Shown: positions 2,576-26,889, counted from the first letter of the stretch. The stretch: DNA of 64,000 nucleotides from an uncultured bacterium (GCA_963713955.1 OY970216.1:732562-796561), one strand, 5' to 3'. Program-made: numbers and translations. Notes: a model not told the origin generated them from the sequence alone.

Positions 2576-2690
2576 CGAGCCGGGCATTCCTTCCGAAAGC
2601 TAAGACTTGCCCCGTACTACAACGAAGTTGTAGTACGGGGCTTGGGCGTCGCCCCGGAGACTGCCTGAGGAAGGGATGCCTGGCGAGCAG
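2576..2690 (+). repeat. structured ~85-nt repeat element, copy A (carries a nested 31-nt perfect palindrome)
   Basis: Shares the core gctaagacttgggcgtcgccccggagacKgcctgag plus a flanking 11-15-bp stem with copies at 17431-17510 (reverse) and 26809-26889. The palindrome ccccgtactacaacgaagttgtagtacgggg (2610-2640) is inserted between duplicated cttg. Confidence 0.65.
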
Positions 2691-2944
2691 CACAAGTCTA
2701 CTTCTTTGATTCTTTATGAACAGTGCTCTTCCTACACCACTTGCAATACTTCTTGTATTCTATTTTCCTCTCAACGGTTTTCCGATTCTTATGGAGCGTG
2801 TAATTCGCGTGCTTACACACGCTGCACCTCAGCCGTATTATGTTTTCGCTAAATTTTCCCTGTGCCATACAATCAACTTGAAACTTATAACTGATAACTT
2901 ACAGCAATCAACGATGGATGTAAAGTGTTCTTTGTTTCTTCGTG

Positions 2945-3216
2945 AGCCGTTGGCCGGATTCGAACCGGCGACCTACTCCTTCACTGATACCTCCCCTTCG
3001 GATTATACGGGAGGGTTAGACTGTATCTTTCCGCCAGGGGCGGACCCTTGTCAGTCGTTCGCTCGCCTAATTTTTTGCGTTGCAAAATTTTGGCGGGACG
3101 GTCTGATCCGCCGATGAGGTGGACTTTAACCGTTATTCGGGATTCACGATGAAATTGCTCTCATCGTGGGCAGTCAATCTACCATGGAGTTGCTCTACCA
3201 GCTGAGCTACAACGGC
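2945..3216 (-). tRNA. tRNA with ~198-nt intervening sequence (putative group I intron) in the anticodon loop; anticodon GUG (His) or GGU (Thr) depending on the junction
   Basis: 5' exon GCCGTTG-TA-GCTCAGCTGGTAGAGC-A-ACTCC (3216..3186) and 3' exon GGAGT-AGGTC-GCCGGTTCGAATCCGGC-CAACGGC-T (2979..2945). The acceptor (GCCGTTG/CAACGGC) and anticodon (ACTCC/GGAGT) stems are perfectly complementary across the ~200-nt gap. The intron has GACCGTC...GACAAGGGTCC-like segments. Confidence 0.65.
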
Positions 3217-3261
3217 ATATGTAAGGGCGACAAAAGCAAATGTTGCCCCGAAATAAATCTT

Positions 3262-3450
3262 CTATCCTATCCTTTTCTCCCTCCTTTCAAAGTAGAGTCC
3301 TCCCCCACCGCAACAGGCAGCAATAAGAATCTCCTCCTTGCCGGAAGTGATTCTCCTCGGCGTTGCGATCTTAACATCCGGGAGTTTATTAAAACTCTTC
3401 CTCCCTTGGATATTTTGTCTCGACTCTCGTACAGATTTCTTACCGTACAT
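3262..3450 (-). CDS. small basic hypothetical protein (62 aa)
   Basis: ORF preceded by GAGGAGG 5 nt upstream of the ATG. No recognizable family; could be non-coding. Confidence 0.25.
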   Translation of the reverse strand: MYGKKSVRESRQNIQGRKSFNKLPDVKIATPRRITSGKEEILIAACCGGGGLYFERREKRIG

Positions 3451-23686: not shown

Positions 23687-24904
23687 CTATTTCTGTGCGT
23701 TGTAGATAGCCTGTATTTCTGCGGCGGAGAGGGCCTTGTCGTATACCCTAAGATCATCGACGGACAAGTCGGTTGATCTCCAGTTGCCACCGTCTATGTA
23801 CCATCTGCCATTGCCCAACTGGACATTGTAAGCGGAACCGTTACAAGACTTCTTCTGGATACTGTCCACGTAAATATAAAGATTGTTTGATTGTTTAATA
23901 AAGGAAATAAGATGCCAACTGCCGAAATAAGAGGTGTAATCGGTGGAACAATATAAACCTAATCCAACCTGAGCTATCTCTAAGAGCGTCGAGGAATCTG
24001 GATTGACAACAACTATATTATTGCCTTGAGTCGGATATTGATAGTTGCCGAAAAAGGTAAAGCCAAGATTGTCAGATCGTCTTACTGGATCTACCCAAGC
24101 GGAATAAGTGAAATCCCCCGTCCCGGTACTCAATTTACTCGCGTTATCAACATATTCGGCTTGGTTGGTGCTGGAAGCCAAGAAAACACAGTTACCGACT
24201 TTGCAATTTGAACCGCTGAGCCACGTCGGGGATCCACCGGACGCCGTCATATTGTAACTGTCGCCGCTCATATCATTCGCGTTCCCATCCAACGGCCACC
24301 ATCCTACTAATCCTTCAGACTTTGCAATAAGGGAAAGGTCAGAACCAATCTCATACCTCCCAGGATCATAGCCTTGGTCTTGGGATGCGGTGGATACAAG
24401 GTATTTCTGTGATTCCAAGGCACTGGATAAGGCATAGGAGCCTCCTGATACGTAGGTATAGTAGAGTCCAGAACTAGTGGTATTCGTAGGGTCTATCGGG
24501 AGCTTGGATAAAGGGGATCCTGATGATAGGAGGGTAAGATTCACGGGAATCCAGCCTGTTCCGTCTACTCTTGTTGAGGAAGAGCTTGGAACACAGTGAT
24601 AGGCCCATCCTATAGGAGGAGAAGACAGTCCCAGATTGGCACAGGTGGATGTGGTATCGGGAACTGATACGTAGAGGGTATTTGGAGTCCCTAAGGACTG
24701 GGTATATTGATCTGCCTGGAAGAGGGAGAGGGCACTATTCAAGGCAGAGAGATCAGACAATCTTGTCGAATCTCTTCCCTGGGCCAGGAGCTGGGCAGGG
24801 TTCAGGACCAAGACGACGGCCACCGCAAGGACGGCAAGGATGGCGATTACGATGAGGAGCTCGATCAGGGTGAAGCTGCTTCGGAATTGAAGGCTCATTA
24901 TCAC
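23687..24904 (-). CDS. prepilin-like protein with C-terminal LamG/concanavalin-like domain
   Basis: FTLIELLIVIAILAVLAVAVVLVLNP N-terminus. C-terminal LVGWWPLDGNANDMSG...LYIYVD...DDLRVYDKALSAAEI resembles a LamG jelly-roll. Confidence 0.7.
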   Translation of the reverse strand: MIMSLQFRSSFTLIELLIVIAILAVLAVAVVLVLNPAQLLAQGRDSTRLSDLSALNSALSLFQADQYTQSLGTPNTLYVSVPDTTSTCANLGLSSPPIGWAYHCVPSSSSTRVDGTGWIPVNLTLLSSGSPLSKLPIDPTNTTSSGLYYTYVSGGSYALSSALESQKYLVSTASQDQGYDPGRYEIGSDLSLIAKSEGLVGWWPLDGNANDMSGDSYNMTASGGSPTWLSGSNCKVGNCVFLASSTNQAEYVDNASKLSTGTGDFTYSAWVDPVRRSDNLGFTFFGNYQYPTQGNNIVVVNPDSSTLLEIAQVGLGLYCSTDYTSYFGSWHLISFIKQSNNLYIYVDSIQKKSCNGSAYNVQLGNGRWYIDGGNWRSTDLSVDDLRVYDKALSAAEIQAIYNAQK

Positions 24905-25890
24905 TTGCTACTGATCACTTTTCTAACGGCTCTCTCAATATCTTTCACACCCATGCCGTATTTTTCGAGAAGCGCGTTCGGTGGTCCCGATTCCCCAAAG
25001 GTGTCTTTCATCCCAACAAACTCCATAGGAACCGGCTTGTGTTTAGCCAGGATCTCAGCCACGGCGCTTCCCATTCCCCCCGCAATCTGATGTTCCTCAA
25101 CCGTGACGACCGCTCCCGCCCGCTCCGCCGCTTTTACGATTGCCCTTTCATCCATTGGTTTTATCGAATGGTTGTTCAAAACCAAAACTCCGACTTTTTC
25201 CTTTTCCAGTTCTTTGGCTGCGACAAGTGCGTTCCGGAGAAGCAGCCCGCAGGCGATGATCGCAACCTGCGGTTTCCGCGATTCCCAAATAACGTCGATC
25301 TTCCCGGGCGCGAACGGCGTTTCTTCCGTCGTCACGACCGCACTCTTTTCCCGCGCGAACCGAAGGTACACCGGCCCGTCGATGGAAGCCGCGGCAATCG
25401 TCGCTTTCCTCGCTTCGATTGCGTCTGAGGGTACGAAAACCCTCATATTCGGCATAACGCGCATGATCGCGATGTCTTCGGTCGCCTGATGCGTCGCGCC
25501 GTCGGGCCCCACCGAAACCCCCGCGTGATGGCCGGCGATTTTCACATTGGAATCGTTGTACGCGATGGTTGTCCGTATCTGTTCGTAATTCCGTCCCGGA
25601 GAAAACGTGGCGTAGGAAGCAATGAACGGAATTTTCCCAGAAACGCCGAGTCCCGCCGCGATCGCCGCCATATTCTGCTCGGCCACTCCAACCTCGAAGA
25701 ATCGCTCCGGGTGCTTCTTGGCAAAAGCCTCGGCACGAGTAGACTCCGTGAGGTCCGCCGAGAGCACGACGACCTGGGGATTCTTGTCACCGAGGAATAC
25801 CAAGCCGTCACCGAAACCGTTCCGTATCGGGACTTGCAGGACGTCCTCATCAAATATCTTGGGATTAAGTTTTAGTTTGGGATTCAACAT
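24901..25890 (-). CDS. transketolase, C-terminal subunit
   Basis: Pyrimidine-binding and C-terminal domains (GFGDGLVFLGDKNPQVVVLSADL...). Confidence 0.9.
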   Translation of the reverse strand: MLNPKLKLNPKIFDEDVLQVPIRNGFGDGLVFLGDKNPQVVVLSADLTESTRAEAFAKKHPERFFEVGVAEQNMAAIAAGLGVSGKIPFIASYATFSPGRNYEQIRTTIAYNDSNVKIAGHHAGVSVGPDGATHQATEDIAIMRVMPNMRVFVPSDAIEARKATIAAASIDGPVYLRFAREKSAVVTTEETPFAPGKIDVIWESRKPQVAIIACGLLLRNALVAAKELEKEKVGVLVLNNHSIKPMDERAIVKAAERAGAVVTVEEHQIAGGMGSAVAEILAKHKPVPMEFVGMKDTFGESGPPNALLEKYGMGVKDIERAVRKVISSK

Positions 25891-26759
25891 TATTCGTGTT
25901 CACTCTCGATTCTCCGGCCGAGCGTCCGGAGTTCAGCGAGGGCGCGCTCCGCTTCCTCTTTGTTCGGTGGTTTGCCGTGCCACGTATAATCGCGTTCCAT
26001 GAAACTCACGCCTTTTCCGGGGATTGTATGCGCAATGATCAAAGTCGGTTTTTCGTAGATCGCTTCGGCCTCCGAGATGGCGTAAACAAGTTCTTCCATG
26101 TTGTGCCCGTCAATTTCAAGAACGTGCCAATTGAACGCTTCGTACTTCTCGCGGAGGGGCTCTAGAGGCATCACGTTTTCCGTGAAACCGTCTATCTGGA
26201 TGTTGTTCCGATCCATCACGACCGTCAAATTATTGAGCTTATTCTTGCCGGCGAACATCACGGCTTCCCAAACGTTCCCTTCGTCGTGCTCCCCATCGGA
26301 CATGAGGCAGTACGTCCGGTATTTCTTCCCATCCATCTTGGCGGCTAAGGCCATTCCGATGGCCTGCGAAAGCCCCGACCCAAGGGGACCGGAAGTCGTC
26401 TCGACGCCGGGAAGCGTCCCGCGGTGGGGATGGCCCTGGAGGCGGGAATTGATTTTGCGGAGCGTGTAGAGCTCTTCAAGCGGGAAGTAGCCAGCGTACG
26501 CCAAGGTTGCATAGAGCACCGGACAGATGTGCCCATTCGAAAGAATCAGCCGGTCCCGATCCAGCCAGGTCGGCCGTTCCGGATCATGTTTCAGGATGTG
26601 GAAATAAAAAGCCGTGAAGATGTCGGCCATCCCGAGGGGCCCCGCCGAATGTCCCGACCCGGCCTCAAGGAGCATCTCAATGATTTTCTCGCGAATCTTG
26701 TTCGCCGTTATCTGGAGGTACTCAAGCTTGTCTTCGCGTATCGGAGTCATTACCTTCAA
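25890..26759 (-). CDS. transketolase, N-terminal (TPP-binding) subunit
   Basis: GSGHSAGPLGMADI...GHPHRGTLPGVETTSGPLGSGLSQAIGMAL. Confidence 0.9.
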   Translation of the reverse strand: MKVMTPIREDKLEYLQITANKIREKIIEMLLEAGSGHSAGPLGMADIFTAFYFHILKHDPERPTWLDRDRLILSNGHICPVLYATLAYAGYFPLEELYTLRKINSRLQGHPHRGTLPGVETTSGPLGSGLSQAIGMALAAKMDGKKYRTYCLMSDGEHDEGNVWEAVMFAGKNKLNNLTVVMDRNNIQIDGFTENVMPLEPLREKYEAFNWHVLEIDGHNMEELVYAISEAEAIYEKPTLIIAHTIPGKGVSFMERDYTWHGKPPNKEEAERALAELRTLGRRIESEHE

Positions 26760-26808
26760 TTATACAACTCATAGAGCGAGAAGAAAATAAAATATCTCGA
26801 AGCCACGT

Positions 26809-26889
26809 GAGCCGGACATCCCTCGCGAAGGCTAAGACTTGGGCGTCGCCCCGGAGACGGCCTGAGCGAGGGATGTCCGGCGAGGGAGC
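26809..26889 (+). repeat. structured ~85-nt repeat element, copy C
   Basis: ccggacatccctcgcgaaggctaagacttgggcgtcgccccggagacggcctgagcgagggatgtccgg with a perfect 15-bp outer stem. Confidence 0.65.

Follow-up and report, generated by a model that had tools for sequence, protein, structure and literature searches.

A candidate family of gene-end hairpins with an almost invariant apical module in Patescibacteria

The 64,000-nt stretch of DNA from an uncultured bacterium analysed here (GCA_963713955.1 OY970216.1:732562-796561; hereafter the window) contains exactly three copies, A, B and C, of a hairpin element, and with about as much confidence as doubt we regard these as members of an old family of ~95-nt hairpins specific to the ultra-small Patescibacteria. 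A scan of genome collections yielded 65 further exact matches to the core of the element at 62 loci in 26 assemblies, where about 1 match would be expected by chance (20 specified bases, 1.2e12 positions), and all named assemblies with core matches are Patescibacteria. The preliminary description of this DNA had reported a three-copy structured repeat at gene 3' ends, with arms that differ between copies and stay complementary within each. All of this was recovered, each copy lying 6-9 nt past a stop codon, and the window copies are not a segmental duplication.

The window copies and the anatomy of the hairpin

The features of the window are as follows, the boundaries of each copy including the basal GYGAG/CGAG pair.

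2575-2688, plus strand: copy A (base GCGAG at 2575-2579 and CGAGC at 2684-2688; arms 2580-2594 and 2669-2683)
2610-2644, plus strand: nested 35-nt insert in copy A, made up of a perfect 31-nt palindrome (2610-2640) and a second CTTG (2641-2644)
2698-2868, minus strand: rpmG (ribosomal protein L33, 56 aa), host gene of copy A, its stop codon 9 nt from the copy; translation ends KYCKWCRKSTVHKESKK
2540-2567, minus strand: promoter-like TTCGCA-16-TATAAT, carrying TG, that separates copy A from tRNA-Trp (2458-2529)
17431-17509, minus strand: copy B, 9 nt past the stop of an SLT-domain gene and antisense to that gene
16015-17421, plus strand: SLT-domain gene, host gene of copy B
26807-26885, plus strand: copy C, 6 nt past the pyrG stop and antisense to pyrG
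26892-28568, minus strand: pyrG, host gene of copy C
42169-42933, minus strand: Y1 (IS200/RAYT-type) transposase gene (PF01797, 36 bits), not counted in the element

Copies B and C carry the 28-nt core GCTAAGACTTGGGCGTCGCCCCGGAGAC without a mismatch, 100 shuffles yielding no match, and in copy A the core and apical module are split by the nested insert. Folding z-scores on the core strand are -6.7 for A, -4.9 for B and -7.5 for C, with arms that differ between the copies and pair within each. A covariance model built on the 65 copies from elsewhere picks out all three (C, 87 bits; B, 79 bits; A, 34-46 bits) and finds nothing above 16 bits in the rest of the 64 kb; ordinary hairpins occur 0-20 nt past the stop at other genes in the window. 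Copy A is antisense to rpmG as well as to tRNA and rRNA genes, and the promoter-like site between it and tRNA-Trp places it where a transcription unit ends. Copy B lies 151 nt from the stop of a convergent prfB-like gene (17661-18395), and copy C precedes the next minus-strand gene (25890-26759) by 47 nt.

The base of the hairpin, 5'-GCGAG...CGAGC-3', comprises a G-C pair, a C-G pair and a tandem G-A/A-G, and for this CGAG...CGAG repeat, which is replaced by Watson-Crick pairs in L016, L031 and L043, a tandem G-A helix is the better reading. Stem P1 (14-15 bp) changes freely and is always compensated, and a second tandem G-A/A-G loop lies between it and the 5-bp stem P2 (AGGCU/AGCCU or AGGGU/ACCCU). 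The apical module is almost invariant, reading UAAGAC-UU-[GGGC-GUC-GCCC]-C-GGAGAC, and its parts are UAAGAC, a small hairpin and CCGGAGAC. Its stem also co-varies, with a C-G pair changed to U-A in L055 and L068, and occurs as GGGGC/GCCCC in L067 and as GGCC/GGCC in type 2.

The hairpin itself is under selection, as overwhelming covariation shows in an alignment of 77 copies, in which 95.4% of pairing cells are paired (77.3% in shuffles) and 405 cells carry double changes (106 in shuffles), values that none of 500 shuffles attains. Double compensatory changes occur at 18 of 25 pairs (19 of 25 with RNAalifold), including 13 of the 14 pairs of P1, whose arms are the most variable part of the element, and the covariation score is 0.569, as opposed to at most 0.104 for slid partners.

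The element matches no described RNA or repeat family. At gathering scores, Rfam gave no match in the window or in 18 loci, and at E values up to 10 the sole match, to mir-H2, was due to chance (25 bits, with a threshold of 92); no paper describing the element and no viral copy of it were found. Conserved internal-loop nucleotides beside variable helices, together with CUGAUGA/GAA-like strings in a subset of copies, recall a small self-cleaving ribozyme or other catalytic or ligand-binding RNA with the internal loop as its core. We consider a new RNA of this kind highly improbable, as even the permissive search returned no ribozyme or riboswitch and the single unbranched hairpin makes the three-way junction of a hammerhead impossible.

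The reported mini-hairpin within copy A, described as an insertion with a duplicated CTTG, is also borne out. The palindrome is perfect and flanked by CTTG at 2606-2609 and 2641-2644, whereas the copy orthologous to A (L015:5456-5556) has a single CTTG without the insert, as do all canonical copies; no copy of the insert was found in 81 loci. Of the half copy of this palindrome placed at a start codon, no more stands than a stretch at 30669-30682 that agrees with one arm of the palindrome at 13/14 positions, which is suggestive of a half copy and does not establish one.

Gene ends, tolerated protein loops and selection on nucleotides

Most copies of the element begin 0-10 nt past the stop of an opposite-strand gene, and others occupy protein loops that tolerate them. 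Of 51 independent loci, 19 abut the end of an antisense gene only, 2-3 that of a sense gene only and 4 both, and just 4 of ~40 intergenic copies lie between divergent genes. The distance from stop codon to core is 23-36 nt in about 24 copies, which puts the stop 0-10 nt from the hairpin base, and for half of the copies that abut a stop, the core strand carries a convergent gene. In the sense of the host gene, at least four U within 8 nt follow 27 of 51 intergenic copies and at least five follow 15 of 51, the flank profile reaching an A frequency of 0.5-0.64 at only ~3 positions. In many copies, B and C included, this U-tract is weak or missing, and a simple consensus terminator scan made no call on the copies.

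In-frame copies were detected in mnmA (two sites), uvrC, rarA and recG, with all three frames used, and their position within genes makes a terminator role impossible for those copies. Relative to structure 2HMA, the mnmA insert is 18 residues at the tip of a beta-hairpin, a site at which other hairpin families were also found; no pair of empty and filled sites was found.

The invariance of the core among the genome-scan copies is partly a product of ascertainment, because the search pattern required 20 exact bases, and the mnmA set, which was ascertained by protein, lifts this bias at the mnmA locus only. In 17 mnmA orthologues with a mean amino-acid identity of 65%, the nine module codons are the same codon in 98.6% of cases, compared with 56% for 189 other conserved mnmA columns, and five orthologues found through protein alone carry an identical 27 nt. 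Such constancy shows that selection is on the nucleotides, hairpin and module being maintained as nucleic acid even where they are translated.

This evidence bears on the reading of the element as a purely selfish miniature palindrome, MITE- or RPE-like and functionless, with a stem that stays paired only through hairpin-templated correction. Such an element would be dispersed, multi-copy and inserted in frame at tolerated protein loops, as observed, and the mnmA site shared with other hairpin families, the nested palindromes at the tip of copy A and of a second case (L011:5460-5578) and the recent duplicates would all suit it. Copies are indeed occasionally duplicated within a genome, as near-identical copies inside single genomes demonstrate: WY3.bin161 holds six copies with almost identical arms, and in L064 two copies inside one mnmA gene share an arm and a rare variant. 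However, the module is codon-invariant in vertically inherited mnmA copies, including in the many genomes where the mnmA copy is the only one, which excludes gene conversion; templated correction would remove the conserved G-A/G-A mismatches; and the recent WY3.bin161 copies have neither a sequence-conserved terminal inverted repeat nor a target duplication. We therefore consider a functionless element unlikely.

The folding strand and candidate explanations

In 57 of 65 copies the core strand is the better folder, the mean advantage being 4.8 kcal/mol. Within P1, G-U pairs outnumber A-C pairs by 84 to 26, a count slightly favoured towards G-U by the model-fitted alignment, and by 30 to 7 in the mnmA copies alone. 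The excess of G-U over A-C, together with the conserved G-A/G-A loops, indicates that it is the strand antisense to the host gene that folds. An antisense folding strand is a poor fit to a simple terminator of the host mRNA.

We hold with moderate confidence that the element is a selected, dispersed gene-end hairpin that works in the manner of REP/BIME and Rickettsia palindromic elements (RPEs) and is bound by a putative conserved factor. In this mechanism, which we infer, a non-autonomous dispersed repeat would occupy the niche of a gene-end hairpin, serving transcript-end formation, insulation or stabilisation as REP/BIME hairpins may do, and in-frame insertion would be tolerated as it is for RPEs. 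The frozen internal loop would be the docking site of a putative conserved trans-acting factor whose target is the antisense strand in its folded form, be it single-stranded DNA or a transcript (antisense or read-through), and the constancy of the module would be due to this factor and not to the nearby RAYT.

A more specific proposal, put forward tentatively, is that the module is the recognition site of undescribed, conserved Patescibacterial machinery working on the antisense strand, in the form either of an antisense RNA-protein particle or of a single-stranded DNA or cDNA intermediate. The mnmA copy, preserved at every codon and in many genomes the sole one, would then be the ancestral, functional copy, and the element would represent a mobile or regulatory element of a new class.

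We consider it rather unlikely that the copies are expressed from the core strand as small structured RNAs or cis-antisense transcripts, for example as an antisense terminator or insulator that blocks transcription coming into a gene from its 3' end, or as a multi-copy protein-binding RNA. The G-U over A-C asymmetry and the three tandem G-A motifs are typical of structured RNA, a convergent gene could read into half of the stop-abutting copies, and type-2 relatives lie behind genes in sense orientation. Against this, there is no conserved upstream promoter, the flank showing just a short A-rich stretch; synonymous constraint in mnmA ends at the edges of the element; the convergent gene in L009/L041 has its own terminator ahead of the element; and only about one copy in three has a U-tract past the core strand.

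Comparison with known systems

Like the REP, BIME and REPIN sequences that accompany RAYTs in Enterobacteria and Pseudomonas, the gene-end hairpin described here is dispersed and multi-copy, with extragenic copies concentrated behind genes and between convergent ones, and its stem carries compensatory changes, as do those of REP/BIME, which are thought to serve as transcript-end hairpins. The preliminary description had called the repeat REPIN-like, noting that it was longer than classical REPs, and had suggested that the RAYT in the window acts on it. The Y1_Tnp gene (PF01797) is genuine and the length difference is real (~95 nt against 20-40 nt), but the link between the two is unsupported. 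The nearest copy is 15 kb away from the gene, whose flanks carry no hairpins, no RAYT homologue was found in the 62 element-bearing loci (~480 kb in 8-kb loci, a sample too small to decide co-occurrence), and the element is absent from 11 metagenomic loci encoding RAYT relatives (83 kb).

For a RAYT that would bind the hairpin as single-stranded DNA and spread copies through the genome, the preference for one specific folding strand with its tolerance of G-T and G-A pairs, a trait of single-strand DNA enzyme substrates, the within-genome duplication and the REP-like preference for gene 3' ends can be cited. However, REPs have conserved arms and a 5' GTAG, whereas the element conserves its tip, lets its arms vary and has no GTAG-type 5' tetranucleotide, and REPINs consist of two inverted REPs clustered around their own RAYT. 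In addition, the module is common to distant lineages where REP types are specific to their own RAYT, the orientation of copies tracks transcription and not replichore (within 25 kb, B points the other way from A and C), and the in-frame copies have no place among strictly extragenic REPs. Taken together, these observations make the REPIN-like reading quite improbable.

RPEs are also palindromic, ~100 nt long and found both in frame at surface positions of housekeeping genes and between genes, and are not known to have a transposase. The element behaves in the same way, as an in-frame palindrome of about this length in conserved genes and intergenic regions; the likeness is one of behaviour only. 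RPEs belong to another phylum, and within a family their conservation extends over the full length. We know of no report of RPEs with a frozen tip and co-varying arms, an antisense bias or stop-codon abutment.

Integron attC sites resemble the element in lying directly past the stop, in their length (57-141 nt), in structure-based recognition with variable stems and conserved unpaired bases, and in that the bottom (template) strand is the folded, active one. It is from general knowledge of these sites that a single-stranded-DNA recombination or retro-element site, either an attC-like bottom-strand hairpin or a cDNA hairpin of the mRNA 3' end with the antisense strand active, can be entertained, cDNA being the only transcription-oriented single strand of such polarity. 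We regard it as very unlikely, since the element ends in GCGAG...CGAGC without the R''/R' boxes (RYYYAAC...GTTRRRY), forms no cassette arrays, has no integrase or reverse transcriptase regularly nearby, sits as solitary copies behind housekeeping genes, and includes in-ORF copies ill-suited to cassettes; attC itself was rejected as a candidate on these boxes, arrays and hosts. A MITE was likewise rejected, as arms are not conserved and the WY3.bin161 copies share only AGCGAG to CGAGC, with no flanking duplication. So was a TIGR-Tas array, as copies are solitary and kilobases apart, whereas that family is described as tandem repeat-spacer arrays beside a Nop-domain Tas gene (PMC12045711).

Intrinsic terminators are likewise GC-rich hairpins a few nt past the stop at the ends of transcription units, and about half of the copies have a short host-sense U-run. 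In contrast, terminators need no conserved loop sequence where the element has a conserved tip, and the element folds better on the opposite strand, often has a weak or absent U-tract and occurs within genes. The IRE, SECIS and histone 3' stem-loop act on the sense mRNA, whereas the sense strand of the element is the poorer folder, but they share with it an apical or internal loop that is invariant, co-variation in the stem and occurrence with many unrelated genes, and this combination of fixed loop, co-varying stem and unrelated hosts points to a single trans-acting binder.

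Copies in the window and across genomes

The three copies of the hairpin repeat were found where the preliminary description had placed them, each at a gene 3' end as it had claimed: copy A behind rpmG, copy B behind an SLT-domain gene and copy C behind pyrG. A promoter-like site for tRNA-Trp comes after copy A.

Copies of the element in the window (boundaries include the basal GYGAG/CGAG pair)
Copy A: 2575-2688, + strand
Copy B: 17431-17509, - strand
Copy C: 26807-26885, + strand

A 28-nt core is identical in copies B and C and was absent from every shuffle, and the arms are indeed unlike between the three copies and paired within each. 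A covariance model derived from copies outside the window scored copies C, B and A at 87, 79 and 34-46 bits and returned no fourth copy in the 64-kb window, the next best match scoring 16 bits. The observation of a dispersed hairpin element is real. Copy A also contains the nested perfect 31-nt palindrome with duplicated CTTG attributed to it (2610-2644); this insert is missing from the orthologous copy (L015:5456-5556; L numbers denote loci fetched from other assemblies or metagenomes) and from all other copies, and its palindrome was found in none of the 81 fetched loci. What had been called a half-copy of this palindrome at 30669-30686 stands as a 13/14 match to one arm (chance expectation about 0.02), not as a full half copy; this match immediately precedes the ATG that starts the minus-strand gene 29651-30667.

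Other features were recorded in the same stretch. The bacterial 23S and 16S genes are unlinked: they share a strand, at 1-1560 and 13279-14699, but are separated by 11.7 kb that include protein genes. An insertion of 283 nt is present in the 23S gene near model position 230. The segment at about 2950-3350 (-), between rpmG and tRNA-Thr, has no ORF and a weak match to a tmRNA 3' end (2953-2970, E = 0.003), and is probably a divergent tmRNA gene missed by ARAGORN and Rfam. An ARAGORN tRNA-Arg(gcg) at 3638-3719 (-), overlapping tRNA-Thr (3706-3778) by 14 nt, is doubtful because Rfam does not report tRNA-Arg there.

Scanning 185,579 species genomes with the pattern AAGACTTGGGNNNNNCCCCGGAGAC yielded 65 matches at 62 loci in 26 assemblies, with about one match expected by chance, showing that the family extends beyond this genome. 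Named assemblies carrying the core are Patescibacteria without exception (Paceibacterota, Minisyncoccia, Wolfe-, Jorgensen-, Brenner- and Nomurabacteria, some labelled Saccharibacteria), with 8-11 copies in some genomes (up to a dozen) and one in many; the window flanks align with Minisyncoccia/Paceibacterota MAGs. The viral contigs searched held no copy, and no Rfam family matched at gathering or permissive thresholds. In the literature searched, the core sequence appears in no paper and no palindromic elements or MITEs are described for these bacteria; the element is apparently undescribed so far.

Structure and covariation of the hairpin

Parts of the element, from base to tip
Base: GCGAG/CGAGC, read as G-C, C-G and tandem G-A/A-G
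P1: outer stem of 14-15 bp inside the base
Second tandem G-A loop: between P1 and P2; in five copies a 5x5 GAAGA/GAUGA loop instead
P2: inner stem of 5 bp, AGGCU/AGCCU or AGGGU/ACCCU
Apical module: UAAGAC-UU-GGGC-GUC-GCCC-C-GGAGAC

The compensatory stem changes first noticed in three copies lie far above both the shuffle and the slid-partner controls when computed on 77 copies. Paired cells reached 95.4% compared with 77.3% in shuffles, double changes occurred in 18 of 25 pairs (405 double-change cells vs 106), none of 500 shuffles equalled the observed values, and the covariation score was 0.569 vs at most 0.104 for slid partners. The apical stem co-varies as well, with C-G replaced by U-A independently in L055 and L068, GGGGC/GCCCC in L067 and GGCC/GGCC in the type-2 relatives, which set the same module in a different stem. 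Since the arms share a consensus from which they depart mostly by transitions, they are homologous and not borrowed host hairpins, and the homology of the arms rejects, for the canonical type 1, insertion of the module into any pre-existing terminator hairpin; the separate type-2 chassis may have arisen in that way.

Resemblances to known RNAs were also weighed. Five copies contain the CUGAUGA/GAA strings of a hammerhead, which is ruled out because the element is one unbranched hairpin, in which these strings are the tandem G-A loops. The partial likeness to SRP RNA domain IV (GGAGACAGCC vs GGAAGCAGCC) is coincidental, since it is located in the co-varying P2 stem, and TIGR arrays are ruled out by the solitary copies. 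Pairing of the element with 16S, 23S or the tmRNA-like region gave chance 8-mers only.

Selection on nucleotides, gene-end position and folding strand

In-frame copies occur in mnmA (two sites), uvrC, rarA and recG, using all three frames. Ten scan matches share mnmA site 1, read as ...TGHYVR-[..AQGVSGATPKSYPSQ..]-ARD.NKDQSY, where the insert, compared with the solved MnmA 2HMA, adds 18 residues at a beta-hairpin tip; the second site, antisense and just before ARVRYRQPL, is used in L064:1917-2017 and L070:1337-1437. The scan's demand for an exact core is a bias, which was removed by collecting MnmA homologues by protein and fetching DNA for eight of them. All five sharing the peptide VSGATPKSY had an identical 27 nt, and the other three had a changed loop, or a changed stem with compensation. 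Across 17 mnmA orthologues with a mean amino-acid identity of 65%, modal codon use was 98.6% at the nine module codons compared with 56% at 189 other conserved columns, corroborating the proposal that the hairpin is under selection. Selection acts on nucleotides, and this is direct evidence of function at the nucleic-acid level. Gene conversion cannot explain the invariance of the module, as the mnmA copy is the sole copy in many of these genomes. The synonymous constraint spans the G-A loops and P2 and stops at the element edges, which rejects an antisense promoter within mnmA.

Among 109 parsed Parcubacterial homologues (from P0001-P0120, the MnmA proteins collected), the beta-hairpin from TGHY to KDQSY measures 15-78 residues and holds several unrelated hairpin-like inserts; one insert family ('GTGRSLAPAAS...') also occurs directly after the SLT-gene stop in L024 (L024:7246-7596). 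This part of mnmA seems to be a hot spot where hairpin elements collect.

In about 24 copies, the stop of a long opposite-strand ORF lies 23-36 nt before the core and 0-10 nt from the hairpin base, sometimes overlapping it (e.g., TAG|CTCGCC). Copies A, B and C of the window share this arrangement. When orthologous copies were grouped into 51 loci, 19 had an antisense gene end alone, 2-3 a sense gene end alone and 4 both, and just 4 of some 40 intergenic copies had divergent genes on either side. Ordinary window genes carry plain hairpins 0-20 nt past the stop, and therefore the element occupies the usual niche of gene-end hairpins. One plain hairpin, at about 12490-12530 (-), begins 1 nt past the stop codon of gene 12531-12959 with GCTCGCC, the base sequence of the element without the apical module, and the orthologous L024 spacer holds a full element; this plain hairpin may have been stripped of the module or may represent the ancestral chassis.

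In most copies the strand that folds lies antisense to its host gene, because G-U outnumbers A-C 84:26 in P1 on the core strand, the one written out in the preliminary description (30:7 within mnmA copies alone), this strand is the better folder in 57 of 65 copies, and three symmetric loops are conserved on it as G-A/A-G, which would read U-C/C-U on the opposite strand. What folds could be single-stranded DNA or else a transcript, either antisense or reading through from a convergent gene. Because the U-runs are short, a role as a plain terminator has no more than half support. A replication-oriented strand bias of the IS200/IS605 kind is rejected, since orientation tracks the host gene and not the replichore: copy B runs against A and C, and in L006 two copies 2 kb apart point in opposite directions.

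Mobility and comparison with known repeats

The ORF at 42169-42933 is, as reported, a Y1 transposase. The suggestion that the copies are REPIN-like substrates of this RAYT is not supported: no hairpins were found flanking the gene, the nearest copy is 15 kb away, a RAYT homologue is absent from the 62 element-bearing loci, and eleven loci encoding RAYT relatives (83 kb) hold no element copy. The REPIN/RAYT label should be dropped. Weak generic hairpins (17-18 bits) beside RAYT relatives in metagenomic loci, at L080:2582-2667 and L076:917-1015 and 1632-1714, are unrelated to the element and may instead be REP-like hairpins that belong to these transposases. Beside the window RAYT gene lies a 393-aa ORF (43019-44200, -) in which the C-terminal half is very long and rich in Gly, Ser and Ala.

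Occasional duplication is evident in WY3.bin161, where arms are nearly identical among six copies, and in L064, where two copies in one mnmA gene are near-duplicates sharing an arm and a rare variant. Nested palindromes occur at the tips of copy A and of L011:5460-5578. Neither a transposase nor a target duplication for the element was found among the copies examined, and orthologous spacer alignments gave no clean empty site. A TA or CGAG target duplication is opposed by recent copies and by variants with Watson-Crick pairs replacing the GA pairs. In L031, the place that copy B holds in the window is taken by a type-2 element, and the opposite gene end has a type-1 copy in addition.

Type-2 relatives (UAAGAC, small hairpin and CCGGAG in the stem GAAAAAGUG/CACUUUUUC, with 4-nt loops; some lie behind genes in sense orientation)
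L015:3114-3214, +
L003:4245-4349, +
L040:1438-1542, -
L031:~2755-2860, +
L012:~7000-7075, -

In total, the element is selected, structured and dispersed, its internal loop is frozen, it sits at gene ends, its in-frame insertion is tolerated and it occasionally duplicates, a description we hold with high confidence. Patescibacteria genomes are tiny and streamlined, and non-functional DNA is not expected to persist in them; a 95-nt hairpin is kept, partly in essential-type genes, despite this streamlining. The invariance of the mnmA module points to nucleic-acid function in organisms about whose RNA biology very little has been learned. The covariance model, the defined conserved loop and the natural variants are tools that make the question of binder and strand directly testable.

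The specific mechanism is offered tentatively, at somewhat less than even confidence: a conserved factor that acts on the antisense strand would dock at the module. The element may serve as a gene-end hairpin as REP/BIME sequences do, and may spread like Rickettsia palindromic elements. Conservation is reversed relative to REP/REPIN sequences, the element having a frozen tip and free arms, and it is best filed among dispersed palindromic repeats.
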